DNA of 64,000 nucleotides from the NCBI GenBank assembly GCA_964187785.1, contig OZ076409.1:23066001-23130000 (forward strand), given 5' to 3'. Position 1 is the first letter of the stretch. Each line of letters begins with the position of its first letter. This document shows, one piece after another, positions 13,693-62,828 of the stretch. The notes under the pieces were generated by a model. The model ran no database searches, was not told the origin of the DNA, and saw nothing but the letters and a program-made list of their open reading frames with translations. This DNA comes from Amphiscolops sp. MND2022 (lineage: Eukaryota). Both the position numbers and the translations under genes were made by a program.

Positions 13693-14796
13693 GTCCCACA
13701 CTTTTAAAAGAAAACAGAGCTGCCTCAAACCCGTCGAAAACTGTTCTGGACCGTACACTCCTGTCCTTGACTGTCGTCCCGTCGTAGGCAGTTGGTAAGA
13801 GATGTTTGTCCCGGTGCTTCCATTCTTCAACATTTGTCCCGCACTCCAAAAGTGCGTGATCAGTTCGGTTCATTTTGATTTTGTATTGCAGTATAGTTTT
13901 AAAGTAAATTAGGATTTTGATGGAGACTCTTCAATCCTGAGGAAATCCGATAGGGCTTGCATGTCAAGTAGAAATTTATTGTCGTGGAGTACCAATCACC
14001 AACGAGAACGTCATTTCCTGAGTTCGTTTGGGTCGTTTCCAATTCTGACATTTTTCTGTCACAAATTTTCCATTCCCCCGGTTTTTTGAAGTTTGATTTT
14101 TTGACTAGTCTTTGATTTTAGTGCTAAGCTGGCCAGGCTAGCATTGGAGATGTCTTAATTTGATTCAGACAACATCCGGGTTTCTTTTGGAGTATTTTCA
14201 TACTTCCGAAATTAATTTGAAGCATTTTTCAACGCTTCAGGATTCTTGTGGGAGCACTTTCCAATACTTGCTGTATGAAGTAAGTAGGTTCATGCTTCCG
14301 GATTTCAGTTGAAGCATTTTTCAACGCTTCAGGATTCTTGTGGATGCACTCAAATACTTGCGGTTTGAAGTACGCTCATGCTTCCGAACTTAATTTTTGT
14401 TTCTGTTTTTGCACAAGAAATGAAACGAAATTTTGTTTTGGTTGAACTCAATGTTACTGGAAAATTGCCGGGACGATCGCCCACTAGTGAATATTTTCCT
14501 TTCTTCAACGTGCCAGCCACTATATTTGTTCCCGAATATCCACAATTTATTGAGTCAATGCTTTAATTAATACTCAGCAAGGAAAGTCAGATAAGTTGAA
14601 TTTGTGTCAGTTGTTTTCAAACTGTATACGATTGTGTAGATTGGGTTATGATTTGAACCAAAAATGTATTTTCCAGCGTTTATTCGTTCGCGTCTTGTTG
14701 TGTTTGCTTTGTAATGAGGTATTTTAGGAGTTTTCTGGGGTCGTTTGTCTGTTTTTGTGTGTAGATTCGTTTTGTATTATTGAGTTTTTGGTGTAA

Positions 14797-15195
14797 CTAA
14801 ATCATCATCATCTGTTCGTTGGATTTTCTATCAAAATTTTTCTTTTGGTGCAGTGGGTTGTTCCACTGGGCTCCCCCACTCTTTCTTGAACTAATGAGGG
14901 AGGGAGGGTGGTTGTTTTGGGTGAAAAAGCAACGGTTGAGAGTATCCAGTTTCTTTATTGCTATTGCCATTTGGTTATTTGGGTCAAACTGTGTTTTCGT
15001 TGAAGTTGATGTGTCTTGGCTTGCGTGGGACCCTGTCGTGTCGTATAAAAATTGAGCATTTTGCAAGATTTGTCTTCGGAGTTGTCGATTGGCTCCTGTC
15101 ACCATGTGATAATCCTCTTCTGAAGCTATTATTTCGTCTTCTAAGTTCAGTTCGTTTTGGTACAATGATTTGGCTGGATGTCTTAAATCTTTCAT
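14797..15195 (-). pseudogene. Putative N-terminal gag remnant reading from inside the LTR through the PBS
   Basis: ORF ...ASEEDYH|MVTGANRQ spans the LTR end and PBS; gag assignment is positional only. Confidence 0.5.
15091..15104 (-). promoter_or_regulatory. Primer binding site
   Basis: TGGTGACAGGAGCC immediately after LTR end ...ATCACA on the minus strand; cognate tRNA not assigned. Confidence 0.7.
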
Positions 15196-16289
15196 TTTTG
15201 AAACTCTGAGAGGATTATCGTCGTTTTCTGATTCTGGATTTTTGTTATTAGATGCGCGAACTCCTATAGACCTCTCATTTTTGGATCCCGAATGTCTTTT
15301 TCAATATCACTTGTCTCCTGTTTCTTCTGTTTCCGATCTCACTCAAGTGAAAAACAAGGTTTTGTTGCCGAGAAATAGTTGAATTTCTTTGCAGTTTTAT
15401 GATGAAGCAAAGTTCAATTGGTGAACAAAGTTGATGAAAATTGATTTACATGGCAGTTGGGTAGTTTCTTTTGAGAGTTACTGCTTTCAACTGAAGTTAT
15501 TTTTTGGAATGATTGGTCTAAAACTGCACTAATGGTCTCAAAATTAAAAGTATGACACTCCTTTTTACAGGTATCATACAGGGATTTGCAAAAATAGAAT
15601 TACGTCAGGAGACGTCATTCTATTTATATCTCAAGAAATATAGAGCACTAAGACCCTAGAATTCAATAAATAGCATCATACAAACGGTTATTTTAAACGC
15701 AATTTAGATTACTCTAGCAACACTGGTATTTGTAGCTAATACTGCTGAATCCACACAGTGACGAGTATACGTCACTACTCGAACCGCAGAGTGACGTATA
15801 GTGTTGTGACGTATAGTGACGAGTACTCGTCGCACCTCGAACCGTAGGATGCCGCATAGTGAACTTGACAAAAACGCATAATGACGAGTATGCGGTACTA
15901 CTCGAACCGCATAGTACCGCATAGTCACTAGCACAAAATGGTAATTAAGCCAAATTGGGCTAGACAAGAATCATTATTACGTAACATAATACTCATTAGC
16001 ACGTGTTTGCTCTACTCTAACCTGGGTTTTATGCAATCATAAGCTCTCAATTGTATGTAATGATGAATGAAATTTACGCTTCTAATACTTCAGATGTATA
16101 ACAAGCTGAAATCCGTATGAAATTTGGTTAACAAATATGAAGTTACATCACGAAAGTAAGAAGCTGGGGTATTAGTTTATAGTCCTTGTTGACCATCTAA
16201 AATTCATGAATGTCTGGAAATCGGGTTTTGCAGTTCTCGTTTTCTTAAGAATTGCCCAATGGCACCAGCACAACAGTGAGGTTGTGACA
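15105..16289 (-). repeat. 5' LTR (1185 bp)
   Basis: Only a handful of substitutions versus 12508-13692; followed directly by TGG PBS on the minus strand. Confidence 0.92.
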
Positions 16290-17547: not shown

Positions 17548-18074
17548 TATAGATCGTTTCAAGAAGTTCGCGAGACTAGAACTAATTAATCGTCGGTGAA
17601 AATATCTTTTGTGAAGTCAAAAAAGAAATGTCGATGGCACCAGTTAACTCTCCTATCTTTTTGAGCATTCGTAAGAACGTCTTGTACAGCAACACGGTTT
17701 CTAATGTCGCGATTTTTCAAGAAACGGTGAGCCGTGGCATTGGAGACAAGTCGTCTGGCTGTAAGCTAAAGGTCAGAAAGCCGGAGTTTTGAGTTTCGAT
17801 TAACGCCGCCCAGAAGCTGACGCTTGGTTCGTCTTGGGAGTACAGATTTTTGACCAAATTGGACTTTTTTCTGCCCAATACGTGGCTTCAGGATTCCTCT
17901 AAGTGTTGACACGGAAATCGAGAAAATCCGAGCAACTGCTAAGTTTGCATAATCCGGGTTTGCATCTTTAAAACGGTATATCCGTTTTGCAAAGGTCGTT
18001 TGCCTCGCAAGGTTCCAGAAATTGATATGATAGCATCGCTAATTAAAAGACTGATACCTAGTCTCGCGAACTTT
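17548..18074. mobile_element. MITE whose right TIR is split by the 17.6-kb Gypsy insertion (remainder at 35690-35707)
   Basis: Left TIR TATAGATCGTTTCAAGAAGTTCGCGAGACTAG; right TIR = CTAGTCTCGCGAACTTT (to 18074) + TTTTTGAAACGATCTATA (35690-35707). Confidence 0.85.
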
Positions 18075-18806
18075 TGTTACGGCAACTGCTGATGTCAACA
18101 GTTTTCATTAATTTTCAACAAAGTACCAAAATTTCGTTCAAATCTGACATGCAGCCTGAACATGTTTGCGGTCAAAGACCTGTCAGAAAACAGCCTCAAA
18201 AGTGATGAGAAGCCGCCCGCGAGAACAAAAACAGCAATACCAGCAGCTAATACAGCTATTTTGACGATTTTTCACGGTATCGTGCCTATCTCCGACAAGA
18301 TTTCTCTACTTTTGTAGCAGAAACCCGTGAATCCAGATGTCTGCCTGAAGATCCCTGTGATGATCTGTGGTGCTACCAGCTCGAGCGCTGGGTATTATTT
18401 TTGCTCTTTCCACGAAGAACGGACTCAAACTGTTATAATTGATGTATTTGTGGTAGTTTAGATTGATATGCTCGAGAGCTGTCTAAATACATCTGTGCTA
18501 TAGTTCATTATTGACGACTTGTCAGATTTCCCTAAGCTATGCTTTAACTCTAATTCAGTCTGTCGGCCCCCTTTTGGAGGCTAATTAAGCAGTGGTCTTC
18601 GGCCCAAGGAAGATGCTTGTTATTCTTAGCAGTTACAGACTGGAACCAGGCCAGAGAGCACTCTATAAGACGGTTCCCCACCCTAGAACTGGCTCCCTTG
18701 GAGGTAAAATGAGCTAGGGCCGTGGAGAGCTGAGTCCCGGATCATATTCACAGTTCTAGTTCCTCCACTTCTAAGTTTCGGTTAAGCGCCAGCGCTTGTC
18801 GTTACA
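18075..18806 (+). repeat. 5' LTR (732 bp)
   Basis: TGTTACGGCAAC...CTTGTCGTTACA; roughly 90% identical by eye to 34953-35689. Confidence 0.95.
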
Positions 18807-18821
18807 TAGAAACTCATTTTT

Positions 18822-18839
18822 TGGCGACCACAGAGGGAT
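18822..18839 (+). promoter_or_regulatory. Primer binding site, complementary to a tRNA-Arg-like 3' end
   Basis: TGGCGACCACAGAGGGAT; reverse complement ends ...GTGGTCGCCA, resembling eukaryotic tRNA-Arg(TCG) 3' ends. Confidence 0.75.
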
Positions 18840-21411
18840 CTTCTTGGGAAGCTTTCCCGAGCAGTTTTTAAAAGAACTGGCCCCCTGGTGATCAGTGCCA
18901 AGCCTGTTTTGACTCTGACAAAGAAGGAGAGAGCAGATTTGTACCTTTTTTCAGCCGTATTACGTCCTACCGGAAGCCGAAATGGTGTTGAGCTAGAGAA
19001 AACCCGAAAAAATCTCGTTTTCACGTGCGAAAATGGCATTTTTAGGTGTTTTTGAGAAGAAATTGCCAAATTTCTGTGATGTGTTGTGTGCCCATCAGCG
19101 GGTATCTTTTTGCAGGTGTAGACAACCGTACCACGTGGCTACGGGTGTTTACCAGGTTTTTTAAGCTTTTTTCAGCCATTTTATGACATGCAAGAGGGTG
19201 ACTGGTGGATGGTTAGCCACGAGCCAGCGCGGCGGAGGAGGGGTCAAATCGTGTGTTGCAGACTTTCTACTCCCATTTCTCGTGGAGACGTTCTAGAGGT
19301 ATGGTTTTTGGTGGACAGCAAGTGCAAAAGTGCAAGAGTAGACAATGCTAATGGTTCAAACTGCGTGTCTCTAACTGGTCTAGATGTAGAGAAAAAGCGT
19401 GGCGAAGATGCACCCCCTGTGACCGGAAGTGTCGCTCAAATGGCTCATGGTAGCGAAAGTTTTGGAAATGCACCTTATTCGACGGGGAATTGTTGGTGCA
19501 GGTCAGTAAAATTTTTCTGCGAAGGTAACGACATCCTATGAAGTGTTTTTCTGCGAAAAAGCACTTTTGAGAAAAAACCTCATTTTTACTGTTTTTTGGT
19601 GTTTTTCTTGGTTTTGAGCACTCGTGCTCACTGAAACCAAGAGAACCTCGTGAAAAGTGTTGTAAACAGCAACTACAAGGTTCGAGAAAGCTGGTACAAG
19701 TTGCACAAAGCACCGTTCTGGCTCTTGTTTGTAGAAAAAGTGCAAATATTGTGCCAGAAAATTGCAAAAAAGTGGAAAAAGGGTCGAAAGAGTACCCAAA
19801 AACACAAATGTACACGTATGTAAAAGCATGAAAAGTCGGTGTACAGTAGTTCCTTGAGCGCTGCTAACCTACAGAGCACTAATTACAATTTCTATAGCGA
19901 ATTCAGGCAGCCTGAGGCTGATACTGTGTGCAAAACCTGCAATTTTAGGCATTGAATAGTGCATTGTGTGAAAGTCTTTGGAGTGAAACTTAATCGGCTT
20001 TGGGGAACCTGCGTATCCTCAATTTCAATTAATATAGTGAAAACTGAAAACAACGTATGGTGGTGACAACCGCATGTAAAAACTCCCATTCAGTGCTGAG
20101 AAAATTGGAAAAACTCACTGAATTGGATCAATTTTCCACAAAACCGGGCAGTCTCTGTTTTAGGGTTGGGTCACTGATTCCTGAACCCTAGCTAAAAAGT
20201 GGTTGCATTGTCGTAACTACCACTAAAATAAACGCTAGTGCCGAAAATTTGATGAGCGTATCGGTCACCAAAGTCGAGACAAGCTCTCTGACGTTTCGAT
20301 CTCAGAAAAGCGAAAAAAAGAGCCAAAAAAACCAAAACTACAAGACTGTCAGTGCCCTATACCTAACGGGCAAAACCAATTGGAGGTCTATCCCAGTGCT
20401 ACGAAAAATGGGGCAACAGGTTGGTCCCTTTTTGCCTGTCGTATCACTTTCTGAGGTGACTCCCTTAGCCAATTTGTAAAAAAAAATGCAAAAATAATGT
20501 TTTTTCGTGTGTAACGTCAATATGGGGTCGAAACCTTAAATAAACCTGCGCACTTCAATTCGACTATTTCAGTGGCATTGCTGGCACTCACTGACAAAGA
20601 CAACCAAGTTTAGTGACAATTTGTACCGTACTTGTTGAGAAAATAGCAAAAACGTGAGACCCAAGAAAGTAAGCAAAAAGTCGGGTTTTTCGCATTTTTT
20701 CCGAGTAACCCCGGTATCCTAACCAAAGGGTGGGATCAAATTGCTAGTCATCATCGTGCTTTGTGCTAATTACTACGTTGCTGCAGAGAATTTGAGCTTG
20801 CTACCATTTCCTAGTGGACTGCAATCTTGAAATTGACGTGAAAAACAGTGTATTTTGGTACATGGTGGTACCTAGGTGGAATTGTGCGGAAAGGGCGCAG
20901 CGCAAATCTGTGTTCATTTTCGTAAACCTACGTGTACCTAAAATCTGCTGGTGGTCAATTTTGGGCCTGGTACGGCGCTTCCAGTGCGCACACGAGCCAC
21001 TTGAGTGTTGTTGTGAAATTTTTGGAAAATTCAAAAATTCTTTGGAAATCTTCCTGTTGGCGCCCAAAGACAAAACTTCTTAAACTAAGTCAATTTTCTG
21101 GCCCAGTGTGCTTGTGGGAAAGTGCTGTTCAAGTTTGAACGTCCTACTAGCCTTTAAACGTGTTTCGGAAAACCTCAGACGTTGAAAAGCGTCATTTCCC
21201 TTAGGTCTTCACCGAGACGAGTAAGGAGCTACCTTCAAGGGAGGCCCCAGGTGCCTTCAGAAACCTTTTGTAAACCTCTGTTTTCTGTGTAAAAGTGTAC
21301 TGGGTGGTGATCTGCACCCTGCTGGCGCGCTCAGTGAACTAGCGGAGGAAATGGGGTTTCCGGCACTTGTCTTTACTTGTAGTTGTGTGTTCCTGGAGCT
21401 CGCTAGCGACC

Positions 21412-23137
21412 ATGGTGTGGCACCCTAGTGTCATACGCCGTCTGCGATCAGTATTTCGAGGACGTGATGATAGTTCGCTACTGCTGATTGAGTCGCTTGT
21501 CTCCACAGAGGAAGATTGTGTTGGCTCGACCCAACGTGAAAGATCCAGTAGCACCGAGGATCTGAACCTGCAACAATGGTCTTCGCATGAGTCGTCGATG
21601 GATAGTTCACGTTATTCAGGAGAAACGTCTGATGTAGTATCGCTAGAGCAACAACGCACGGAGGAGTTGGCAGCAATAGCTCCCCCCTCCGAATGTTCAG
21701 TCGTATCCGAAGCTTGGAGCAGGAGACGTACCCCGTGCGCGGAGCGTGGCCGATTCTGCTGTTTCATCCCAACGATCATCTGTCTTTAAAGCCGCAGTAC
21801 TTCGAAACCAGCTGCCGAGGTCAGACTTAAGGACTCAATGCTTACCATGCCTGATACTGGGCGCAAGCCTGCACGAGTGCAGATGAAAGGACCTCATGAC
21901 TCCAGTTCAGCCGGGCAATCCACAATCAAGGCGTGGACCCTACCACTATCTATCTGGATTCTTCTATTGATGCTGATTTGTCAAGTACCAAAGCTACTTT
22001 GCGATCTCAAACCGATGATGCCGCATATTTGTCGGCACAGACTATGTTCTCTGGACCGAGTTCCTTGTATCTGACAGCAGGTAATGAAGTGCCCTCGGTC
22101 AACCCCTGCGCGAGCAGCACTCGCAAGAAGGAGCCGGAGACCATGGATTTGTCTGTTCAAGCTACCCAAAGCAGTGACGACGCAACACGTGATCTGGAAC
22201 CGAAAGAAGACGTTGAGGTTTTCTCCCCCGAGCAATTGAAATTCACTGGCGCCATCTCAAAGGCCATGTAAGGAGTTAGCCCCCTTGCTATCTGGCAGGG
22301 ATCTGGCGCAAACGAGGCCTAGTGTGTATAGAGGCTCGGAGGACGGGTCCATCGATGGGTGGATTCTGGTAATGCGGAGATATGTGAAACGGTCAAAAAC
22401 TTCGCTGGATGATCAGGCTTGGAGCATTATTGGACACCTTGAAGGTGAAGCTCGCAACTACATCATCAATAAAGCTGAGTCTGAACGCAACACCCCAGAG
22501 AACGTAATTGAGCTGCTGTCCAGTCGCTTCGGCACCGGGTGTAATCGCATGCAGGTGCGCCAGGCGTTCCTAAGCCGCGCCCAACATAAAAAAGAAGATT
22601 GGATGCAATATTTAGATGTTTTGGAAGGTCTTCGTAGTCAAGGATTTCCACAGGAGTCCACCACTACCAAGCGCAATGAAATCCTGCAGCGCTTCATGGA
22701 ATCGCCCTAAGGGAAATCAACAACCTTATGACCCTAGGCTAGCTATGAGATCTCGAACTCATCCTTTTGTAGTTTTGCAGCCTGAAAAGATGGTATTACC
22801 ACAAAGGGTATTACTCCCACCTCCCACACCACCTTTGAATGCACTGGCAGCTCCTGCCGTCGTCACTCCTGCCAGAGCACTGGTGGGTGATTGCTTCAAT
22901 TGTGGACAAAACAGGCTTTTCGCTGGCAAGTGTCCCAATCGAGATCAGGCTCGTAAGCCTGGTGGTGCCCAGCCCAACTTGGATGAGGCAGTGAAAGACA
23001 CCATGGAAGACTATGCTGAAGGTGTAGCCGGAAAATGTTCCGGAGTACAGTTCTGTGTGAACTGTGTGATGATGGATCACGAGGCATCGCAGTGTATGGA
23101 AAACCCTGTGAGCAATGACTTTGCTTTTAGTCGGTAG
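21412..23137 (+). pseudogene. gag: gag (long Ser-rich N-terminus, capsid, two zinc knuckles), frameshifted
   Basis: Capsid-like PSVYRGSEDGSIDGW...HLEGEARNYI...LLSSRFG...QHKKEDWMQYL; CFNCGQNRLFAGKC and CVNCVMMDHEASQC knuckles. Confidence 0.85.
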
Positions 23138-23622
23138 GCCAAGACTGACGCAGCCGGTATTGCCACTCAAACTATGCCTGCCGAAGATGATCGAGTATTA
23201 GAGCTGCGTCCTGCAGAGCTACCCGCTTTGAATCCTCCTCTAACTGTTACTTGTGGTGAGAAGCAAGTACGAACAAGTCTGGAACCGACTACATTCGACC
23301 GCTTGGCCGGACTCTCATATCTGTTCATTTGGTGTTGGCAGCCGAGAAAAAACAACGTCCCAACTTGACAATACGTGAATTGTGGTTGGAGCTAGTTGCT
23401 AATCCTGCCTACAAGCAAATCGATATGAGACGACCCGACGAATGGTGCGGGGAGGGTGAAACAAAAACTTTGTCCTCATATGCCTCTGTGCCCGTAAACG
23501 CTACTTTGATGGTGTCGACATGACATTTGATGCCTGTGTGGTCATGGACATGTTCCCTCCTGGAATACGCCTAGGTCCTCAAAAACTGAAATGTTACAAT
23601 ATCATTCGACAAGAACCTACTG

Positions 23623-23960
23623 GTGAAGCCCGTATTGGCGAGAGCTGCGCCCATACCTTTGCGAGGACTGGTGGACACCGGTTCCGGTGTATCTATTCTG
23701 ACGTTCTCAGCTTTCAACAGGTTTGCAGTGCACACTGGTGCTGCACTCCGTCCCTGCCGTATCGATCTGTATGCTGCCAATGGGAAAACCATTAAGACGC
23801 TCGGGATGGTAGAGCGTGTGCGCTTCCAGTTGGGCGACTACGAATTGCAGACCAACTGTGTGATGGTGGATGATGCAATGGGAGTCGAGGACTTCCTGCT
23901 GGGGCGAATCTTGCTTCGGACCTTTCAAGTCTCGGTTGATTTGACGGCCATGAGGATAGT
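23623..23960 (+). pseudogene. pol: Aspartic protease (retropepsin)
   Basis: LVDTGSGVS active site, AANG flap, DFLLGRILL motif. Confidence 0.9.
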
Positions 23961-24583
23961 GGTGCAAGCGCCCGTGAAGCCCGTATGGCTTTACGCCCAT
24001 ACTCATGTTGGTGACTCTGATACTGCAATCCTAGTAATTCTAGCTCAGGAAGTTGTTTTACAACGTTTCCAGAGCTAGAGCTACCGTGGTCACCAAAGAT
24101 CTGGAATCTCTTATTTTTCAGACTGTGGCGCTTAACGCCTCCCTGTCTGACATGTCTTTTCGTAATGTCGTCTTTTCAGAGGACAATATGGCCACTGTTG
24201 GCGGAACAGACTCACTGTATGTCAACCTAATTAACCTGACAAGCAACCCACAGCGTGTGCGGTGTGTCACGCCGCTGGGCACCGTAGTGCCGGTATCTTT
24301 AGTGTAACAGGCTGTGCCCCAGGAGGTGGATGGCATTCCCGAAAAAAGCAAGAAAACTGAAGCCAACAAAGGTCGCGCAAATTTTGTTTACAAGATGTAT
24401 AATCAAATGAATCTATCAACTGAATCTGAGTTAACGTTTTCATCCGAATTTACGTCTTCGTCTTCCACTGATCCGAGTGAGATTCGCAGGCACACCGATT
24501 CGGAGCTGATGGCTCCGATTTCTGGACCAGACTTTCAGTTACAGGAAATTAAGGACTTGTGGGGCGCTAGCGCCTGTTAGTCT

Positions 24584-25550
24584 TTGGGAAAAACACTTAT
24601 TGAATTCGATGATTTGTTCATGAAGCATAAAGCTGACATCGGTCGGTGCACAATCGCCAAACATCCGGTTGAGGTAGAGCCTGGGGCTATACCGCATCGT
24701 GAAGGTGCACGGATGATTTCTCCTGAGAAGGCCGAACGCGCCAATCAAGAAGTGCGTAACCTCTTTACCTTGAGGTTGATACAGCCTTCGCTGTCCCCTT
24801 GGGCGAGTGACATTGTGATGGTTAAAAAGAAAAAATGGGGAGTTGCGCTTCAGCTGCGACTTCCACCTCTTGAATGACGTAACCATCAAAGATGCCTATC
24901 CTTTGCCTCGCATAGATGAGAGCCTGGCACCACTAGGCAAAGCCGAGATCTACACTAGTACTGATCATGCCTGGACATTTTGGAAAATTTCTGTGAGGAA
25001 GGCCGATCGCAACACGACGGCTTTTGCCTGTGAACTAGGTCTCTTCGAATGGCGACGGATGCCTTTCGGAATGTGCAATGTTTCTGCCACTTTCCAGCGA
25101 GCGATAGCTAAAATTGTTAATCGAGAAGGCGGCATGGTAATGGCTTACAACGACGATTTTGTCATTGCCACCGAAACTGTGTAGGATCACATGGTGCGCT
25201 TGCGGGAGGTTTTCGAAAGCCTCGGCGAGGCCGGCTTCAAAATGCGAGTGGTCAAGTGTGATTTCATGAAGTCCAAAATCAAGTATTTGGGACGATTTGT
25301 CTCCGCGGAAGGAGTGAAACCTGATGCGAAGGCGATAGCAAAACTGCACGATTGGAAAACTCCTCGCAACAAGACGGAAATGCAGAGTTTCTTCGGCTTC
25401 GCCAACAACTATTGCGAGTTCATTCCGTGGCACGCCAAATTGGTTGCACCCTTGCATGCCGTCATTGGCCTCAAGGTCACTTTTGCATGGGGTCCCGAGC
25501 AGCGAAAGGCCTTCAATGAGATTGAGAACGCTTTGATCGAGGCGACTGCG
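24584..25550 (+). pseudogene. pol: Reverse transcriptase and connection, decayed
   Basis: IQPSLSPWAS, DAYPLPRIDE, TAFACELGLFEWRRMPFG, AYNDD (YxDD), KYLGRFVS, FFGFANNY. Confidence 0.95.
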
Positions 25551-25950
25551 TTAGCGCAACCTGACTCCGAAGGCGAATTTCTTTTAGAAACTGATGCCAG
25601 CGCAATGATCATTTCAGGCACTCTGCACCAGTGGCAAGGTCTTCCGGATAGCGTCGCCGTCGCCCCATAGTGTATGGTAGCACAAAACTGACCACTACTC
25701 AAGCAAAGTATGGAGCCTCCAAGCTGGAAATGTATGCCGCTTACCATTTCATCGTGAAAAACTATAGTTATCATTGTCCTCAAAAGTTCACCCTGTGGGT
25801 GGATAACCAAGCACTGTCATGGTTAAAAACTTATTTCTCTGATCAAGCACTGGTTGGCAGAGGGATCATGACACTCGACAAGTACCATTTCCAGGTGGAA
25901 CTTCACCCACGAACTCAGCATCGCAACCCCGATGGATTGAGTAAACGAAC
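25551..25950 (+). pseudogene. pol: RNase H
   Basis: FLLETDAS, YGASKLEMYA, FTLWVDNQAL, HRNPDGLSK. Confidence 0.9.
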
Positions 25951-26639
25951 TAATGAGTATCGGTGGCGAGAAAATCAGCTTGCACAGCTACCACCCACTG
26001 GCGAGCGTTGGAACTTCCTTTCACCGGATGAGTTCGACAAACTGCCTTTTGCACCGTGGTTTGACGTTCAGGGCAGAGTCATTCCAAATCACCCTGAACT
26101 ACCCGAACACTTGCAGAACATGGAGCGTGCAGCTCCCAACCCCGTACGTCGTGTTTTTCGCCCAACACAGTAAGCGGGACAAGCAGGCGAAGGCGTTAGC
26201 TGCGCCTTTACCGCCCCTGCCCTCACCCGAACTGCAAGTGAATGAAGATTTTCATCCAAATTATCCAGAAGAGTGGATAGATGTCACCCAGGAGGCCAGC
26301 GAAGATTATCTGTTGCTGACTCATGCTGCCAATGTTCCCTCGCAGACAATATACTCTGTGACTGAAGCCAGTATCAAAACGATACAAGGTGCTCCCTCAG
26401 GAGTGTGTGATTCAGTCATGGCCCTTCGAGATATTGACAGGGAGCACCATGAACCTGCCAACAGCGTGCATGGAATCAAGGATTTGGTTATAGCCCAAAA
26501 CCGTGATGTCCATGTGCTGGCCAATAAAAAGCTGGTCCTGAACGAACCTATAGACAACGACATTTTTCCTGAGGACGCGCGGTAGTTTGCACGCAATTAC
26601 TTCCGACAAAAGAAGTGACTCTTATATATTAACAAGAAC

Positions 26640-27730
26640 GTGGTTCTTTGTGTGCAATGTCCACCTACCCAGCGTCCATTGCACAAACGTCCGTGCATGA
26701 GTGTCATGCCACAGCTATATCAGCATGAAATCTTGTTCCGTGTTCATGATGCCATGGGACACCAAGAAACTTCCAAGGTCGTTGCTGGCATTCAAGAACG
26801 CCATACTTGGTCTTGCCTTCGCTGCTGCGTGGACAAGTACGTAGGTCAATGTCTCACGTGCCAGCAAGTGCGTGCTGAGCCTGGTAACGTCAGGTTTCTT
26901 CTGAAGATCATCCAAAGTGGATACTTCAATGAACTACTTCAATATCACCACCTGAGAGTTTGCCCCTCAGATAGTAACAACACGGGCATTCTGGTAATCA
27001 TTGATCACTTCTCAAAATTTGCTCAGGCTGTTCCTTGGAGCCATAACGACTACGATGCTGTAACGACCTCGAGGCTGTTATTGCAGAAATGCTTTGCGCG
27101 TCATGGCACGCCAACCCGCATGCAGTCAGACAATGCTCACAACTTGACAGCGGAGGTGTCTAACGAGTTTTTGAAAGCGTCTCATGTAACTAAGGTGACC
27201 TCCACTGCGGGGCATCCACGAACTCAAGGTCTGGTGGAACGCCAGAATCGCACACTTTTAACCTTCTTACGTGTATTCTGCTCATGTCGCATGCGCGACT
27301 GGGACCAGTGTCTTGATGAGGTTATGGGTGCCTATGATTCCACAAGGCACGCTATCACTCGCTTTTTGCCATATATGATCACAAGTGGCATAGAAAAAAC
27401 CATTTGCCTCTTATTTCTGTATCCCGAGTTCGCAACTCATTCTTTCGAATCACATGAAGTACGCCAACAAGAAATCCACGACTTGGTGCGCCGTAGTAAG
27501 CGCCAACCTCAGTTACGTCAAAAATTGAAATACGCTGCGACATTCAAGCACGGTCCTACCAGCTTGGCGACTTGGTGTGGGTCTTCTGCCGCTATGTGCC
27601 GCAGAGGGGCTCGCCGAAATTGATGCGTGCCTGGCGTGGACCAGATAAAGTTGTGCAGGTATTTCAGGATGGTCGTGTTTATGTCCTTGATACCGGACAA
27701 AAGGTTCACTTCGAACGCCTCAAGCCGCAC
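26640..27730 (+). pseudogene. pol: Integrase (HHCC, DDE core, GPY/F-like C-terminus)
   Basis: HDAMGH...CLTCQ; LVIIDHFSKF; SDNAHN; HPRTQGLVERQNRTL; frameshifted KLMRAWRGPDKV...VHFERLKP. Confidence 0.95.
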
Positions 27731-28860
27731 TAAAGCGAGCCTTTGGAATTTGCCACGGCGCAAGCAAATGGCGATGACATTGTAGTTCTGGTGAACCCAG
27801 AGCTGGAGCGTTCCGTCGATGTTGTCGACGACGATATATCTCAGTCTTCTTATGAAACTGAGTAATTACTTTCAGAGGCATCTGATGTGGCCTTGCCTTC
27901 GCGAGGACGTCACTTAATGGACACTCGCCTGCGCACGAGACTCCGTACAGGCGGTTCATGCATGCACTATCAACAATTCCATTAGTCTACCTCTGGTACA
28001 GATGACGAGTTGTCTGATGTCATGTTGCCGATTCCTCCTAATACTATCGATGCTGATCACCTGGAGCCTGTGGCCCCTATCCCTTCGTTGGATCAGTCGA
28101 TATCACCTACACGTCAACTACCGCAAATATTCTCGGACCATGAACGTGCACGCTCCCTGTCACCCCAACTAACAGCGTCTGAGAAAGAACCTTCGTTGCT
28201 GGGTACGTCAGCACCCTTGGTAACCAATCCATCACTGACGGATTTCCTCAGCAACTATCCTATTTGGCCTACCGCCACCCAACTGCCTCTCTTGTCCGTC
28301 AGCACAGACAGCGATGACCCACACCCCTCGGCCCCTGTCATTACCTCCGCATTGTCGGTAGCAGGGACCTCTCCATCTCCTAAAGGGAAGAAGGGGAGAC
28401 CACCCACAATCCAAAAGAGACGACTAGTTCAGCCGAGAGCAAGAACGAGGAAGAAAAAGACGCCGAGGAAGGTAGCAGAATCTGATAGACCAACTGCATC
28501 GGAAGCTCCCAGGTACCAATTGCGGAGTAAACGCCGACCGCGTTACAAATGTGGAACTTGTGGACTGCGGGATTGCGTTTGTCTATTGGCTGTGAGTGAG
28601 AACCGGGGGTTCCCACTGGAGCCCGGGGAGTTCTTCCGGAAGGGAGAGAAGCAGAAAGTCTGGTGCATCGCCTCACAGTCCGAGCCGAGAAGACATTCTG
28701 CTGTTGAGCGATTTGGAGACCACCCACTGGACACAATCCTTCAGAAGTTAATGTTACCCGGAGCTGCGAAAGTCCCGTGTCCTAGGTTTAAGGAGTGGTC
28801 CAGTGACGGAAAAAGATTGGAGATCACCCTTGGCTACTGTGATGCCTCCAGTGCCAAGCA
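27731..28860 (+). pseudogene. Post-integrase extension: acidic/Pro-Ser-rich linker, AT-hook-like KKGRP, basic tract, CxxC-xxxx-CxC cluster
   Basis: ORF 28010-28927: PKGKKGRPP, RYQLRSKRRPRYKCGTCGLRDCVC. Confidence 0.6.
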
Positions 28861-29887
28861 AGTTTGTCTTTGGACCGTTCAACTTTCAGCGCGAGCCTGT
28901 ACAAATGGCTCGTTGCATCACTGCTGACCTGTTATGTGACAAGTGTGGAGTACACGTAGAGCCTGGTGGGGTCTACAGTCCGGCCCCGCATTGTGGCTGC
29001 TGATCACTGCTCCACGAGTGGAAGCTATGGTGGATCCGTCACACCTGTTGTCCTGCTTGGAGAGCCTAAAGACTCTCACGACTGCGAATCTCATATTCTG
29101 TTTCCACATTGTAGACTGGTATCGGGATAAGGTGAAGTTTGCTTGGTTAGAGCTGATAATCACCTGCTTTACCAATTACCCTCGTATCCGTTTGTTGGAC
29201 GAGTGAACCCATACCTTTGAAAGTCCACTTTCCCCAATGGCCGCCCTGGGCACTTTGAATCTCTGGACAAAGACTAACAGTGACAATCGAGCAATGCCGC
29301 GCTCGGTGTGACAAGACTTAGCCAAAATCCAAGGACGCACACCTCGTGTGTGTCTCCCTTCTGACAATGGGCCTGGACGTGAGATTTTCTATCCCGGAGC
29401 CCTGTATCCCAATTTGGTGGATTATATCTCCTATGATGTAACGGATTTTCTGCAGGCGGAGGGCGACATACCGTTGGCCTGCCCCGCCGATCTCGAAACT
29501 AAGTCTGCCGCCCTACGGTACATTCTGAGAGGTTGTGGGACGGAGCGTATATTCTCGCTACGAACACAAGTGGGTGAAGTCCTAACTATCCCACATGAAA
29601 TCACTGACAATTCAACTCAAAGTATCCATTTGTTGGTAGTCCGAGCAAAACAGCATACGCCGCTGATAGCCCACGACTATCTGCACTGCATGGCACAGCT
29701 AACAGCGCCTAGCAGACAAGGGATCTACGACAGTCCATTTGCCTATCATGGACCCAGAAGGGCCTATTCGCTGGTCAACCGGTATCATGCTGTGATGAAA
29801 TTGTTCGCGGGTACTGACATCCGCGTAGTCCTACACAACCGCGTGTATGTGTCCATACTCAGCGTAGGACTAGATAAGTCATTATGA
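28860..29887 (+). pseudogene. Two tandem degenerate TARG1/Poa1p-like macrodomains at the pol C-terminus
   Basis: Copy 1 FVFG..MARCITADL..PGGV..LWLLIT..LLSCLESLK..DKVKF..LIITCF..IRLL; copy 2 ISYDVTDF..LACPADL..QVGEV..IHLLVVR..(shifted)KGSTTVHLPIMD..MKLFAGTDIRVVLH; both follow the OARD1/TARG1 motif pattern by eye. Confidence 0.65.
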
Positions 29888-30175
29888 ACTCTTTTTTCCC
29901 TAGTCTTGAAGTAGCCCTTTTATTTACCTTAATCTATTTTTCTAGATTCAATGGGAGAGCCTTGAGCCCTCTTATGTAGTTGGCTAAAACACTTTTAAAG
30001 TCGTTTTTTTGTTCTCAGTTAGTGTTAGTTTTCTTTAAGTTTAGCACCCTCTACCTACAATGTTCCCTTATGGAACTCAATTCATGTACATTCACCTTGG
30101 TGTTGAGCCTGAAGCTCTCGCCGAAAACCACTTTATTCTGAACCTAACGTAAGCTTTTTTAAGACCTATGAGTTT

Positions 30176-33100
30176 ATGGCATTTTACCCCAATAATTCAA
30201 TGCCTCCTCCAGTGCCTGCCGGCACTCCAAGAGCCCAAGAAACTGTGCGAGGGCAGCGGGTTAATCGAGCGCAATACGTTGGGGAGCGCCTTAGGAACGG
30301 TATTCCACCTGTAGCCGTGGCTTTACTCACTCAGTTAGAGACTCAGCAGACCCTGCCAGGTATGTCTCTTTCCATTTTTGCAGAGGTGGATGGCTACCGG
30401 CGCACCATAGTTTGCCAAAATAATAGCTGGGACGGGTATGATCTGACCCACCAGTTCTTGGACGAAAGGTCCATTGCAGCTTACGGACCTAGCCAGGGCA
30501 CCACCTTCGAACAGGAAGCATCCTTGCGGATGATGCCCGCAAACTTGACTACACCACAGTTGCCGCCTCTACAGATGGTATCCTGTCAGCCAGTAGTACC
30601 TAAGCCAACACCAATGACGCCAGATAGAGCGCCGCATATGATTATGCAAACAACGTGCCGAGCACCAACGTCTGACCGGAAGCCTTCGGGGTACCGTCTG
30701 CCTCCTCTGCTGAATCCGGATCTCACTGGTCAAAATCCTGGAGCAGTGATAGTGGCGCTGCAAGCCGAATCCAACTATCCAGAACCGTCAGACTCCCGGC
30801 AAGCCGTGCAACAACGACTACCATGTCTAGCTGCGTACTTGCGAACCGCCGCTCAGCCCTCGGGCTGTGAACCACAAGCAACACCAGTTGAATCCTTACC
30901 CATGGAAGCTGAAACCACAGCTGGCATCAGTAGGAACGCAACAGCATGTCCTAGCGACGAAGCAGGACAAAAAAATATGACCCAAGAAACCACCGCATCC
31001 ACATCCGCAGGCATGGTGACCGAGAGCCCTACTAGTTGTCCTCCACCAAACAAACAACGACCTAAAGCACCGCAACTGACGCTGAAGAGTGTGGTGATCC
31101 CAAAGCCATAGTTTTGAGTTGGACACCGAGGTGTAGCTGCAGCGCAAATGTCAATGAGAGAAGCTGTAGAAAAGTATGGAACCCCTGAAGCTGGCTCTAG
31201 TACGAGCTCTGTGCACTCGGGCACAGCTACACCCGCAACCGCGGTACCTCCCGCTGAAACAATCGAGGCTGAGGAACCGCGCCCACCAGCATTCTTGCCA
31301 CCTTCTGCGGATTTGTCTGGCGCCATAGTGGCTAGCAATTCAAAGCGCATCTGGGAAGCAGCGGAGTTCTTCCACGCCCACATGTATGCCACAAACAGAG
31401 GAGTGCCTCCCAAATAGGCTGATCAAAATATGGTGAACCGGTACAGTATCGTTGCCCACGTCACTCGTACGCTCCGTGCTCGCAATGTTGACATGTCAGA
31501 ACAAGCCTGGGAGCAAAGCGTTGTTGAATGACTACCCGGAACACCTCACAACTATTTAGCCGCCTTGCAACACAATTAACCCGAACAGTTCCCTGCGAGG
31601 TACTCATTGCGAGAAGGAGAAACTTGGGAGGGAAATGCCCGATATTGACGTCATTGAAGCCCCTGTTAAAGAGTGTATTGCAACGTGCCCGTTACTGCTT
31701 GGTGGTAGACTCAACTTGCAGAAGTGATTTGCAGATTGACAACTTGATGCCGGATGTGATGATGATGACCATGCCACTAGCACGGATCCCTGAAATGGCA
31801 GAAATGGTTGTGGCGATATTCGCGCCAGAACTCACCGGTTTTCTGAAGGAACCACCACCACAACGTATGATAATCGCTAATGTACTGGATCACATGGCTT
31901 GTGAAGGGCTGCTGATAGAACTGAACGCAGTCATGGACGACACAAGAAATCCCGATGGTGCTGGCGGTTTACCACAGCTGGTACCTGACGCGTTGGAGAC
32001 AGCCGTAGGGATCCTTCGGGGACGATTGGAAGCATCCGTGCTCTTCGTGTCGCCGCCTGGATTCATGAATTGGGAGAGGATTCTCCAGAAGTTCGTTTAT
32101 CTCTTGATGGAGGTGTGCAATGCTCGCCTTATTGACTTTGCCTTATCTGTGCCCCGATCTTGCGAGTGGGTGCTGGTGACCTGTGCCCTGCTAGACTTTC
32201 TTACCACGCCTACATAGCAGCCAACTCAAGTGTGGCACAGTGCGTGGATCGCTCTGGCAACGCACAGTTGACTTTATATGACGCTATCCACTATGACCAA
32301 GGTATGCCCAAGGAATGGGTCGGATGACTTTCGACCAGCATGGTCGCCAGCTGACGAAAGAAGCAACTGCCGTTGAACGAGAAGCAATACGCCGTCACAA
32401 TTGGTTAGTACGAAACTCCACCGAAGTGCCTATCCGTGAAGAGCTCACTGAAATGGTGAAGCAAATTGCCGCTTGGCCCGCTGCGCGTGCAGTCGAGAGG
32501 ACTATTCCACAGATTCGCTTTGCATCTGGGACAGAGCCAGTAAAACGTCCTGTGGGACTGCGCCATTATTTTGCTACTGAATCTACCAACCTGAAAGCAG
32601 AAGTTAACGCCTGTGCGATCACCTATGCACACTTGTACCAAGGCCGCTTTTTTGATCGAACCCTGTCAGATGTAGCATGTGAGCTCATTCTTCCCCTCGA
32701 GACCGTTTGCACTAGCCTTGGCCTGGGCTGGAATTTGGATGAACTTGCGACTGAGTTTGCACTCTCCGACTTTCAAGCGAATAAGCTAATAGAAAGCCTC
32801 GGAGAAATGACCATTGGAGACGTGCTAGCGCTCGCGGTAGCGGTAGGTCCAGCCAAGATCGTGGCAGGTCCACTGGCCCTGCTGATTGAAATAGGCGTGT
32901 CCTGCTACTTAATCATGTTCTACAGTTACCTGATTCTAGCTCAAGGACAGCTTCATAGCTTGGCTCGCTGGGGTCATATTTTGTATATGAAAGACCTGCA
33001 TGACTACTCAGCTCAACTAGAACGTCTGCGTGCATCGATGCAGCACTGGTTGTATTCGACCTTGGTTTACGCATCAGGATTGTTCGTTAATGTTGACCAG

Positions 33101-34173
33101 GTGCAGCCTCTGCATGACCCCGATCGCCAGTTGCCCTGAGAAACTGCTGGGTTTCCTATGCCGCAGCAGCTTGCTGACCTGACACTAGCCGAAGTAGAAG
33201 ACTTCATTCTCGCAATGGCGTCCGTCTTGGCTCCCATCTTTGGTGCCATTGGAGTATCTTGTTATCCGACCAAGCCGATTGCAATAGCACTACGCGTGCA
33301 TCCGGTATCTATATGCACTTATCTGCAAGGAAGTCCGCCATTGACGTATCCCAGAGTTCTAGACACCGTCATGAGTGGAGAAATGCCTCAGGCTTACACC
33401 ACCATCAAAACAGAGAAACAGTTGGAAGAAAATTTAATGGGTGTTGACGCTCTATATTCATTCAAGTGTATCACGTTCCCTAACCGGTACTGGAAAAAAC
33501 CGGAAGGTGAGCTCGTGCACGCCCTGTAGGATGAGCGCCTGCTTGTCTAAATCATCAACTATAGCATTTGGACTTGGCCATAGTCCCTGGCTGGATTGAA
33601 GGTGTTGGCTGGATAGAAGAACCCTGTATGGCAGCCTCAAGGCAAGATGACCATTTCTGGCGACATGCCATTTGTGATGCACGACGTTGTCAATACCGTG
33701 CTAGGCCCTCGAGCCCGTGCAGAATGGGAGGAGCATTGCCTAGAGATTGAGATTGCCAGCTTCCTCAATTGGAAAAAAGCTTGCGAGCTCTGGAACCAGC
33801 CAGGCTGGGTATCCAAGCGTATAGCCTTGGAAGTCTACAGCAGATCACAAACCGCTCGGCAACAGGCGTTCTAACGAGAGCGATGTCTCTAGATCAACAA
33901 GTGACCAACGCTTCGTCAGCGCATGAACTAGAGGTTGAACCAATGAGTCCACGGATCACCCATGAGCCGACTGGAGAGCATGCAGCGGAGTTAACTCCAA
34001 ACACCGCTCTGATCCAACCAATTGCCGATTTGACTTTGCGTGAAGTTGTTTCTGATACCGAAACAGTAACCACTGTAGTGTTGCCCAAGAGAAGAGCTTC
34101 TTTCTCCACGCAAAACGATGAGACAACTGATGAAACCACCAAGGAAAGAGCTCGACGCAATTCAGCTCAGTAA
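30176..34173 (+). pseudogene. Accessory ORF3 (~1300 codons, disrupted) in env position; Pro-rich N-terminus, SGNH-hydrolase-like segment, unknown helical C-terminal part
   Basis: Chain of long + strand ORFs 30176-31111, 31148-31417, 31528-32217, 32315-33139, 33158-33529, 33647-33874, 33769-34173 inside the LTRs, with coding-like GC content. Confidence 0.75.
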
Positions 34174-34952
34174 AGCCAAGCCGTAAGTGGGAGCGTTCGC
34201 GCTTCCTAAGACTCTGGTGATTCCTTCCAAATTGAAACTTGCTCAGAATATTTGCTTTACGTTGTTCCAATCATACAAGGTGCTACCAATCCTACAAGGT
34301 GCAATTTTTGTTACTTAGTTGATAGTTGATAGTTACGCTTACTATTGTTTAATCTGCAGTGGGTGTATGACCCTTGAGTACGTCTGCCCCAGTTGCTCGC
34401 TTTGCAATAAAAAAGTCAATATGAACCAAGAGATTACTGTTATTTTTGTTTAAAACCGTTCGCGGTGTCCTTGAGTTGCAATAGCTCAAAAAGAACTTTT
34501 AGTCGCAGTTGGACTGTAGTTTCCTGTCCTGTGAATTCTATCGGTTGCTTCGTAAGTATATGAGCTTTAACGCTCCTAGAAAATGTTTTAAAATGCTTGA
34601 AAAGAGAAAAAGATGCAAAAAAACCGAACTGAATAAAAAAAGTTTTTAGCTGACAGTTGTCGCAAAAAAGATTTTAGACGCAATTGACTGTCAAAACAGG
34701 TGTATAACGGCTGAAAACCCAAGCTCTCGAGCTGGTGCTGAAACCTCGTTCGTATTTTTGTAAAAGAACTAGGCAGTAAGAAGTTATTGAAGTAAGATCG
34801 CGAAAAATGTCCAAAAAAGTTGCTGAAAAACAAGGATTCGTCCTTGTCTCCTAATTTGTGGATGACGACCCTCAGAAGCCAAAGTGGTTCAGTTCCAGGA
34901 CGAGACCCTGTGACGATTGCCAGGGACGACAAGCCAGAAGCCCATAGAGTGA

Positions 34953-35689
34953 TGTAACGGCAACTGCTGATGTCAACAGTTTTCATCATTTTTCAACAAA
35001 GAACCAAAACTTCGTTCAAATCTAACGTGGCAACCTGAACATGTTTGCGGTCAAAGACCTGCCAGAAAAACAGCCTCAAAAGTGATGAGAAGCCGCCCGC
35101 GAGAACAAAAACAGCAATACCAGCTTCTAATGCAGCTCTTCTGACGATTTTTCACGGTATTGTGCCTATCTTCGACACGATTCCTCCACTTTTGTAGCAG
35201 ACACCCGTGAATCCAGATGTTTGCCTGAAGATCCCTGTGGTGTTCTGTGGTGCTACCAGCTCGAGCGCTGGATATTTCTTTTGATCTCCTCATGAAGAAC
35301 GGGCTCAAACTGTTATATTTGATGTATTTGTTGTAGTTTAGATTGATATGCTCGAGAGCTGTATAAATACCAGCTGTGCTATTGATCATTATTGGCGATT
35401 TGTTAGATTTCCCTAAGCTATGGTTTAACTCGAATTCAATCTTTCGGTCCCCTTTTTAGAGTCTAAGTAAGCAGTGGTCTTTAGCCCAAGGAAGATGCCT
35501 GTTATTCGTAGCAGTTACAGACTGGGACCAGGCCAGAGAGCATCCTATAAGACGGTTCCCACACCCTGGGACTTCCTCCCTTGGAGGCAAAATGAGCTAG
35601 GGCCGTGGAGATCTAAGTCCCGGATCATATTCACAGTTCTAGTTCTTCCACTTCTAAGTTTTGGTTAAGCGCCAGCGCTTGTCGTTACA
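34953..35689 (+). repeat. 3' LTR (737 bp)
   Basis: TGTAACGGCAAC...CTTGTCGTTACA; TATAAATA at ~35362. Confidence 0.95.
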
Positions 35690-36508
35690 TTTTTGAAACG
35701 ATCTATAGATTTTCACGCATCAGATAAAGAGGACATGACGTAAAAGATTTAAAAACTTCTCAAAAGGGTTTCAGTCAAATGAAAAACTAATATGAAAATG
35801 CTTTCAACCCTTCTGTACCGACGTTTACATCAGCTTAACTTCCCATTATATCTGAACCGCATATGGTTTCTTTTCGTCCCTTACGAAACTATTTTGAAAT
35901 TTTTGATGAAATTCTCCATACTCGTTTGAGGAAAACATTGAAAAAAATAAAACCATTCAATGATGGTTATCACAAAATCTCCGACAAGTCAAAAAAATAC
36001 CGACAATGATGGTTTCATGGTGTAATTTCCACCATGAAAGTTGACTTCCAAAACAATAGTGATAGTAGTCATCCGCTTTCTCATAGTCATCCTCTTAACT
36101 AGGAAGAGTTCAAGGGGTCACGTTTTGAATAAAAAGTTCCAAAAGTACCGAAAAAGTACCAAATAACAAGTTTTCATAGGCGTATTTCGGTTTTTCGAGT
36201 TAGTGAAACCAAACTCCTTGATGCTGTTTTCGCTGTACACTGTTAGTTTGTTACTAGGCACAAGAAAAAAACGTGGTGCAGTCTTCAGTAAGGGTTTCAC
36301 TTCACCACGTGGAGCTGCAAGTAATCACATTTGTACACCCAAAACATTCTTCGAACAAGTTCTGAGAAAACAATAGTAGAGCATTTCCAAAACTGTTAAG
36401 ACTCTCCACAAATGTCCATTTTTAAATTACAAAGATGCTATTTTGGTTGTGAACATGAAAAGATTGATGTAAAGCTTGTACCAGCATAGATTTGAATCAG
36501 GGGACTCG

Positions 36509-56878: not shown

Positions 56879-57126
56879 ATTAGACGTTATTCCTTCTTTT
56901 AGACGTTATTCCACTTTTTAGACGTAATCCCGAATTTTTAGGTTTTATTCTTCTTTTCAGTTTAGATATTATTCCTTCAGACGTCATCATCGGTGGACCT
57001 TTAGACGTTATTCCCTTATCTAATACTGTCGCCCGAATGGTTGGTGACGAAGTGTCCCTGACCGGTTGTAAAATAAGACACACCGGAACTTATTTAATTC
57101 CCATTGAATTTTATTACATATAGTAC

Positions 57127-62794: not shown

Positions 62795-62828
<34 letters not shown>

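Follow-up and report, generated by a model that had tools for sequence, protein, structure and literature searches.

At positions 18075-35689 of a 64,000-nucleotide stretch of the Amphiscolops sp. MND2022 genome (assembly GCA_964187785.1, contig OZ076409.1, positions 23,066,001 to 23,130,000, forward strand; hereafter the window) lies a long terminal repeat (LTR) retrotransposon with coding sequence beyond gag and pol. This raises the question of whether such a unit is a one-off composite or a member of a genuine lineage, and what its additional coding regions, taken in an earlier note for cargo of ADP-ribose fold and esterase fold, may do for it. We find that the locus is an old copy, now decayed, of a Ty3/Gypsy lineage that is abundant and has moved recently. 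This lineage is distinguished within Ty3/Gypsy by a 3-bp integration stagger, an offset primer site and two likely pseudo-enzymes, the last kept in families that have diverged deeply.

The lineage and the copy in the window

Thousands of first-look candidates came up in genome searches, and each search scored about 40-117 of them; these figures are not copy numbers. We examined 37 copies, including the one in the window, all picked through matches to the accessory regions. They belong to six divergent families, W (that of the window), A, B, C, D and E. Complete young copies measure 18.2-19.3 kb, have LTRs that are 99.3-100% identical and, where unbroken, encode a single gag-pol open reading frame (ORF1) of 3,009-3,267 codons (about 3,100 amino acids) and, in a separate frame, ORF2 of 1,397-1,491 codons (about 1,430 amino acids). 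Between families the LTRs barely align and ORF2 identity goes down to 31%, with the layout constant. All ten family A copies that were picked by the extension of pol also carry ORF2, and an extension match is present in at least 18 of 19 copies of families C, D and E that were picked by ORF2. The accessory region thus occupies the same place across six families, as expected of a real lineage and not of a single nested insert.

In a quick tree of reverse transcriptase and RNase H (RT-RH), which kept 43 of 127 rows, the six families group as a single clade, and a sister group (P0411 type) stands outside it at about 56% identity. The RT matches listed, at least 120, carry no element names that would place the lineage with Mag, CsRN1, Osvaldo or another Gypsy clade. 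The best PDB match of an unbroken relative is Ty3 Gag-Pol (E 1.6e-101), and the lineage has direct TG...CA LTRs, the order protease, RT, RH, integrase (PR-RT-RH-IN), a tRNA primer site and a polypurine tract. The copy in the window is organized as follows.

17557-18074, plus strand: host miniature inverted-repeat transposable element (MITE, about 540 bp), split within its 3' terminal inverted repeat; left coordinate approximate
18072-18074, no strand: left target-site duplication (TSD), TTT (3 bp)
18075-18806, plus: 5' LTR, TG...CA
18807-21417, plus: non-coding leader, about 2.6 kb, conserved across families
18822-18839, plus: primer-binding site (PBS), complement of the host tRNA-Arg(TCG) 3' end, 15 nt past the LTR
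21418-23655, plus: Gag region, broken, with deletions; approximate, mapped on an unbroken relative (PF14893, E 2.9e-4)
about 22270-22700, plus: Gag capsid-like core (approximate)
about 22880-22940, plus: Gag zinc knuckle (approximate)
23656-23916, plus: aspartic protease (PF13975, E 6e-6)
24615-25290, plus: reverse transcriptase, broken; approximate (PF00078, E 5e-14)
25488-25885, plus: RNase H (PF17919, PF17917)
26709-27730, plus: integrase, H2C2 and catalytic core (PF17921, PF00665)
27731-29887, plus: post-integrase extension, 2.16 kb
27731-28854, plus: Pro/Ser linker, with an [RK]GRP AT-hook-like motif at about 28391 and a four-cysteine motif at about 28511-28582
28855-29205, plus: probable first macrodomain, frameshifted in this copy; approximate
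29411-29887, plus: predicted macrodomain of TARG1/OARD1 fold closing the pol frame, with a replaced ADP-ribose loop; start approximate
29888-30175, plus: intergenic spacer with a branch-point/AG acceptor-like sequence just 5' of the ORF2 start
30176-34173, plus: ORF2, broken, 4.0 kb; in order, conserved N-domain, disordered linker, SGNH-fold domain, helical domain and C-terminal region
about 31670-32270, plus: ORF2 predicted SGNH-fold domain
about 32560-33080, plus: ORF2 helical domain
34935-34952, plus: polypurine-tract region, degenerate in this copy
34953-35689, plus: 3' LTR
35690-35692, no strand: right TSD, TTT
35690-35704: final 15 bases of the host MITE, right of the element

The LTR-bounded unit of 17,615 bp described in the earlier note is confirmed. 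Its LTRs (732 bp at the 5' end, 737 bp at the 3' end, both TG...CA) are identical at 668 of 738 positions (90.5%) and enclose an internal region of 16.1 kb; the size holds for this copy, young family members being longer. GC content rises from about 38% to about 50% across the coding part. The gag-PR-RT-RH-IN order that had been claimed is recovered by a Pfam scan of this copy, in which the Gag match (PNMA-like) falls under the cut-off and the protease match just under it. A conserved insert of about 260 amino acids lies between RNase H and the integrase, whose C-terminal end we take to be GPY/F-like. The pol extension and the extra sense frame are likewise present, at 2.16 and 4.0 kb, and both are broken here: measured against unbroken relatives, ORF1 consists of 11 frame segments and lacks about 260 codons in Gag, and ORF2 consists of 6 and lacks about 40.

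In order to assess selection, we computed the ratio of nonsynonymous to synonymous substitution rates (dN/dS) by NG86 on natural copies, using family A and two copies of family B; dS is saturated in most distant pairs. The ratio is 0.02-0.03 in RT and IN, 0.05-0.07 in the first and 0.07-0.09 in the second macrodomain, 0.06-0.07 in the SGNH-like domain, 0.12-0.15 in the helical domain and 0.11-0.18 in the main linkers, and the highest value anywhere is 0.39. Families D and E give 0.09-0.20 where dS is unsaturated. The comparison that the earlier note had proposed for the accessory regions thus yields 0.05-0.15, and both accessory modules are under long-term purifying selection. Amino-acid identity between A and B is about 80-88% in ORF2 and 95-97% in pol. 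Between these families dS falls to 0.31 at the ORF2 tail, as opposed to about 1 elsewhere, and identity in the 3' untranslated region reaches 91%; this suggests recombination between families A and B.

Several other copies and homologs were encountered. An internally deleted copy of 11.3 kb (L014-L016, G000:C1:42533001-42559000; L139), with LTRs 97.9% identical, has the Gag N-terminus joined in frame to the macrodomain tail and has kept ORF2, the enzyme core being gone; two partial copies of its junction, each of 2.2 kb and arranged in tandem, lie before it. Two near-identical accessory regions (L067 and L072, G000:C4:76.99-77.00 Mb) lie inverted, head-to-head, a few kb apart. Relatives outside this genome were absent from IMG/VR and JGI metagenome scans. 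Among database proteins, the divergent ORF2 proteins P0286, P0259 and P0296 (from short contigs) and the reverse transcriptases P0376 and P0368 hint at other hosts. The P0197 group was considered as foreign and rejected, as it represents families D and E of the same genome. An ORF2 homolog filed as a protein of a 'Bacteroidota' metagenome-assembled genome (P0239, on an 816-bp contig) is probably eukaryotic contamination.

Elsewhere in the window we observed local tandem duplications at 6088-10034 (about 2.0 kb, 95-97%) and 12508-15925 (about 2.6 kb, 99%), and, at 57100-63900, a tandem array of seven units, each about 948 bp long and 91-97% similar to the others, with a related piece at 51413-52207. 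The minus strand of these units resembles the C-terminal end of a non-LTR reverse transcriptase protein.

Integration, priming and the leader

The flanks of the window element rejoin as the terminal inverted repeat of one MITE. Forty relatives of this MITE, 89-92% identical, were scored, and nine other copies were used for an empty-site comparison. The insertion point reads five T in eight of the nine, and the two window flanks carry three and five T; this indicates one insertion with a 3-bp duplication, which bears out the earlier claim that the whole unit inserted once. The same duplication, which the earlier note had overlooked, recurs throughout the lineage. Of the 37 copies scored, 10 lack an end. 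The other 27, full-length and with both ends, carry a TSD of exactly 3 bp in 25 cases; the two exceptions are one of 4 bp and one with a mismatch, and none is 5 or 6 bp. Intact solo LTRs, for which 13 of 30 loci qualified, have exactly 3 bp in 10 of 13 cases, and mismatched flank pairs used as control agree at 3 bp in 4%. A 4-bp reading of the TSD was considered and rejected. Around 25 sites, A is found three bases to the left of the duplication in 20 and T three bases to its right in 15, so that the bias is symmetric about the triplet.

In two unrelated Gypsy families of the same genome the TSD is 5 bp in three of four evaluable copies, and the 3-bp value therefore belongs to the integrase of the lineage and not to host repair. 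The range given for LTR retrotransposons and retroviruses is 3-6 bp, with a retroviral integrase spacing of 4-6 bp (PMC10045372, partial text), and a curation guide for transposable elements uses 4-6 bp (PMC8969392, partial text). The lineage therefore falls inside the wider range and outside the usual one; since the published range starts at 3 bp, its TSD is rare, not unprecedented. A nearly fixed 3-bp duplication in an abundant lineage provides a natural test of what sets integrase cut geometry, and LTR finders tuned to 4-6-bp TSDs would miss such elements or mis-bound them.

Every family has a primer site complementary to the 3' end of tRNA-Arg(TCG). The predicted tRNA end has 255 genomic matches, as compared with 0 for a reversed control, and ARAGORN calls tRNA-Arg(TCG) at the matched loci. 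The spacer between LTR and PBS is 15 or 16 nt in all 26 copies measured, the usual distance being 0-3 nt. A tandem array of tRNA-Arg(TCG) and tRNA-Arg(CCG) genes with a spacing of about 173 bp was also seen (L140-L143, G000:C9:57.53-57.58 Mb). At the other end of the element, the G-run of the polypurine tract stops 3-4 nt before the 3' LTR in young copies.

The leader was said in the earlier note to be non-coding over about 2.5 kb, and this holds at about 2.6 kb: its substitutions show no codon periodicity and few of its indels are multiples of 3, compared with 80 of 100 spacings in frame for the RT control. A hidden reading frame in the leader was likewise considered and rejected. Within it, a block of 860 nt (window 20047-20876) is 73% identical between families A and C, and its conservation where synonymous sites are saturated suggests a cis-acting element; packaging, translation or promoter functions are candidates. 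An Rfam scan gave 0 matches, and folding z-scores are mostly weak, with two of 38 windows at -3.7 and -4.1. In each of the five families read at this point, the ORF2 start codon has an acceptor-like sequence just upstream, and ORF2 may accordingly be expressed by splicing.

The accessory modules and their possible roles

The post-integrase extension comprises, in order, a Pro/Ser linker, an [RK]GRP motif (six of six family representatives), a four-cysteine motif (five of six) and two alpha/beta domains. A model of a relative, built from 12 sequences (mean predicted local distance difference test score, pLDDT, 61; predicted template modelling score, pTM, 0.43), places the second domain close to human TARG1 (Foldseek E 5.6e-9; VIA Z 17.4, root-mean-square deviation (rmsd) 2.5, 141 aligned), with the macrodomain of bacterial DarG as a further structural match (Z 15.2). 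We therefore predict that the pol frame ends in a TARG1-fold macrodomain. The profile of this domain also matches an intact TARG1-like domain from the same genome at P=89%. Macrodomains 1 and 2 of PARP14 align over both extension domains (Z 12.1, rmsd 13.5), and the profile of domain 1 matches that of domain 2 (P=45%, E 2e-4) and the canonical TARG1-like domain at P=1%; the model suggests that domain 1 is probably a second macrodomain, forming a tandem pair. Pfam found no accessory domain in the window pieces, the unbroken relatives or the 131 alignment members, and a sequence search of PDB gave no match to these domains; the only lead from ESM Atlas, at 0.89, was to a cluster 22% of whose members have Macro. 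The ADP-ribose fold claimed in the earlier note is thus supported through the model of a relative, invisible to Pfam and PDB sequence searches and probably present twice.

TARG1-type macrodomains bind ADP-ribose through a Gly-rich loop and employ catalytic Lys and Asp residues. The Gly-rich loop of the intact domain, GCGLD, aligns with DPER[P/S] in domain 2, and the Lys of the strand motif YxLxTK with Arg, both in five of five unbroken representatives. Position Gly123 of human TARG1 is presumably the second Gly of this loop. Its change to Glu abolishes ADP-ribose binding and leaves RNA binding intact (PMC5928194, partial text). Since the ADP-ribose loop appears replaced, the macrodomains are likely pseudo-enzymes; the isoelectric point (pI) is 5.3-6.8 in 9 of 10, and this mostly acidic character favours a protein as binding partner over RNA.

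A profile search with ORF2 recovered 637 proteins at E<=0.001, and among the 150 of them listed most were fragments. The ORF2 model, built from 131 sequences, has a confident SGNH fold at residues 54-296, a confident helical domain and a final third of low confidence. The predicted SGNH domain aligns with PAF-AH at Z 11.2 (rmsd 3.5, 180 aligned), and the structural matches listed are mostly SGNH/GDSL proteins, with Oskar OSK at Z 8.0. With blocks as defined in the text available of PMC10792757, the Asp-Ser of block I is invariant across all 10 rows, even at 25-30% identity; Asn-x-x-Asp of block III is conserved and the Gly of block II is not, in a register that has no significant alignment behind it. 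The position that would correspond to block V holds Arg, not DxxH, in all nine rows reaching it. In 9 of 10 rows the block III Asp is followed by a His, which P0286 and P0259 lack. The domain is likely a pseudo-enzyme, since its catalytic His appears replaced; its pI is 8.9-9.5 in four of five. Of the esterase-fold cargo claimed earlier, the fold therefore stands by structural match and the catalytic residues appear partly replaced. ESM Atlas gave no usable match for ORF2. The helical domain has no match among the folds listed, which says nothing about a new fold, as this domain and the C-terminal region were folded only as parts of the larger model.

We consider it the best account of these data, at a probability of roughly 0.58, that both modules act as non-catalytic adaptors. 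On this reading of sequences and models, the integrase tail, with its AT-hook-like and four-cysteine motifs and acidic macrodomains with blocked pockets, would hold the integration complex to chromatin or to a partner protein, in the place held by chromodomains in other Gypsy elements. The ORF2 protein would be made from a spliced subgenomic RNA, its basic pseudo-esterase surface would bind RNA or membrane lipid, and as a scaffold it would contribute to particle assembly or positioning within the cell.

A number of points weigh against this account. The Pfam AT-hook profile does not match the extension, AT enrichment past the TSD is slight (69% at 1-5 bp, compared with 64%), the macrodomain model draws on 12 sequences and the first macrodomain is weakly supported. 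For ORF2, Foldseek of the SGNH-like model gives no match at E<=0.001 (E 0.04-0.4), and comparing its profile to those of canonical SGNH domains was unsuccessful (P=0.7%), so the motifs were mapped by their order and by the range of the model. About one third of the ORF2 model is of low confidence, the helical domain has no fold assignment, and two narrow pattern searches found 0 retroposed spliced copies. The invariant Ser and the His after the block III Asp make a rearranged active site possible, and the choice of copies through accessory-region matches may leave room for cargo-free relatives.

The possible rearranged site leads to the explanation that one or both modules are still enzymes, ORF2 being an esterase or acyltransferase that uses the Ser with the Asp-His of block III, or the macrodomains erasing ADP-ribose as counter-defence. 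The near-invariance of these residues, the low dN/dS of the SGNH-like domain, the existence of an active retroelement SGNH esterase (PMC3905857, partial text) and the intact versions carried by other Gypsy families of this genome all speak for it; the Arg of block V, the loss of the block III His in two proteins and the replacement of the macrodomain loop and Lys in every family make it unlikely, and an enzymatic form of the counter-defence suggested in the earlier note is likewise disfavoured, as catalytic and ligand-binding motifs are replaced. Counter-defence could also take the form of an ORF2 protein that is not a particle factor and acts in trans as a suppressor or decoy against host small-RNA or chromatin silencing. 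ORF2 is indeed separate, large, partly disordered and faster-evolving than pol, the 11.3-kb deleted copy keeps extension and ORF2 without the enzyme core, and ADP-ribosylation has a part in the silencing of mammalian L1 (PMC4695847, partial text). We nevertheless find this doubtful, as no region has a dN/dS near or above 1 and a single deleted copy shows no selection for action in trans.

The position of ORF2, that of env, and the acceptor-like site upstream are what would be expected if its product replaced Env as a membrane-active protein for cell-to-cell spread, and membrane roles have been proposed for GDSL ORF3s (PMC5408684, partial text). One 19-residue segment reaches a hydropathy of 2.1-2.3 in two proteins, but only 1.7 in the family C protein; hydropathy revealed neither a conserved transmembrane anchor nor an N-terminal hydrophobic segment in ORF2, one third of whose model is of low confidence, and a viral fold library gave nothing at E<=0.001 and no fusion protein among the 50 matches listed. 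Such a role is thus very unlikely. Doubtful as well is a more elaborate scenario of an undescribed marine-type Gypsy lineage, in which an integrase with a 3-bp stagger would process long cDNA ends and be steered by two dead macrodomains, and the second protein, an independent Oskar-like reuse of a dead SGNH fold, would take element RNA to germ-line cytoplasm in place of an envelope. A neutral passenger, or a single nested insert, could be suspected in the accessory region from the window copy, which is broken there and lacks a Pfam match; this idea can be practically dismissed, given its shared position in six families and open frames in young copies, and is refuted by the purifying selection on it. 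The non-catalytic adaptor reading remains the one we prefer.

Comparison with known systems

The earlier note had proposed a possibly uncharacterised lineage with accessory proteins. Each cargo type has a precedent, in SGNH third ORFs and in macro domains on LTR elements, and oversized Gypsy elements are already known. Neither this combination nor a Gypsy family with 3-bp TSDs is described in the literature searched, repeat databases and supplements lying outside that search, and the main text of PMC13524379 mentions neither esterase, macro nor TSD. As Pfam recognizes neither accessory module, comparable elements in other genomes probably pass in annotations for ordinary gag-pol with additional ORFs of no assigned function.

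The lineage resembles Ty3/Gypsy (Metaviridae) in its TG...CA LTRs, tRNA primer site, polypurine tract and Gag-PR-RT-RH-IN order, but differs in its length of 18-19 kb, the macrodomain tail of its ORF1 of about 3,100 amino acids, its ORF2 of about 1,430 amino acids, the 3-bp TSD and the LTR-to-PBS spacer of 15-16 nt. The label 'giant' given to it in the earlier note does not hold, since that term applies to internal regions of more than 20 kb (PMC6431247, partial text) and those of the lineage measure 16.1 kb in the window and up to about 17.8 kb in young copies. Burro and Ogre are likewise oversized Gypsy elements with extra domains in a long polyprotein and extra ORFs; however, Burro exceeds 30 kb and carries apoptosis, ubiquitin and Env-like domains, Ogre owes its size largely to LTRs of 1.9-6.5 kb, and neither macro nor SGNH is given for them in the accessible portion of the same source.

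Among SGNH carriers, the bdelloid rotifer elements Vesta and Juno have, downstream of pol, a third ORF that is not env and has an SGNH fold, but its invariant catalytic residues are reported to be intact and no macrodomain is mentioned in the available part of PMC5408684; in the present lineage the SGNH fold is one part of a protein of about 1,430 amino acids and lacks the block V His. The zebrafish long interspersed nuclear element (LINE) ZfL2-1 has a phospholipid-binding SGNH esterase in ORF1p, an active enzyme of a non-LTR element (PMC3905857). Oskar OSK offers an SGNH fold that binds RNA without catalysis (PMC10792757); it has lost the nucleophile Ser that ORF2 keeps, and the structural match does not imply shared ancestry. 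As for the macrodomains, fish epsilon-like endogenous retroviruses are LTR retroelements with a macro domain ORF (PMC4977317, citing Basta 2009; partial text), whereas the domain of this Gypsy lineage is TARG1-type, in frame after the integrase, probably in tandem and with its ligand loop replaced. From its best structural matches, human TARG1/OARD1 and bacterial DarG, it differs in having 13-14% identity and a replaced Gly-rich loop and strand Lys.

Further parallels in cargo are the two other Gypsy families of the same genome, in which an SGNH or a TARG1-like domain is fused after the integrase. They differ from the lineage in length (about 13.5 kb), an env-like gene, intact motifs, 5-bp TSDs and an RT-RH only 23-39% identical. 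One (L164-L171, L175, L194-L201) is of 13.5 kb, with 1.7-kb LTRs, an env-like gene, 5-bp TSDs and an intact SGNH esterase (GDS, GTND and DGIH motifs) fused after the integrase. The other, a Gypsy-like family of 13.7 kb (L187-L193, L202-L203), has 437-bp LTRs ending TG...GA, an intact TARG1-like macrodomain after the integrase, a 382-codon antisense frame, an env-like gene and a 5-bp TSD. Further multi-copy SGNH ORFs of about 300 amino acids (L172-L183), with no integrase similarity nearby, are probably LINE ORF1 esterases. For both cargo folds, this genome thus offers an intact and a likely pseudo-enzyme version, borne by different Gypsy families, and such paired domains can be used to test the role of the cargo and its need for catalysis.

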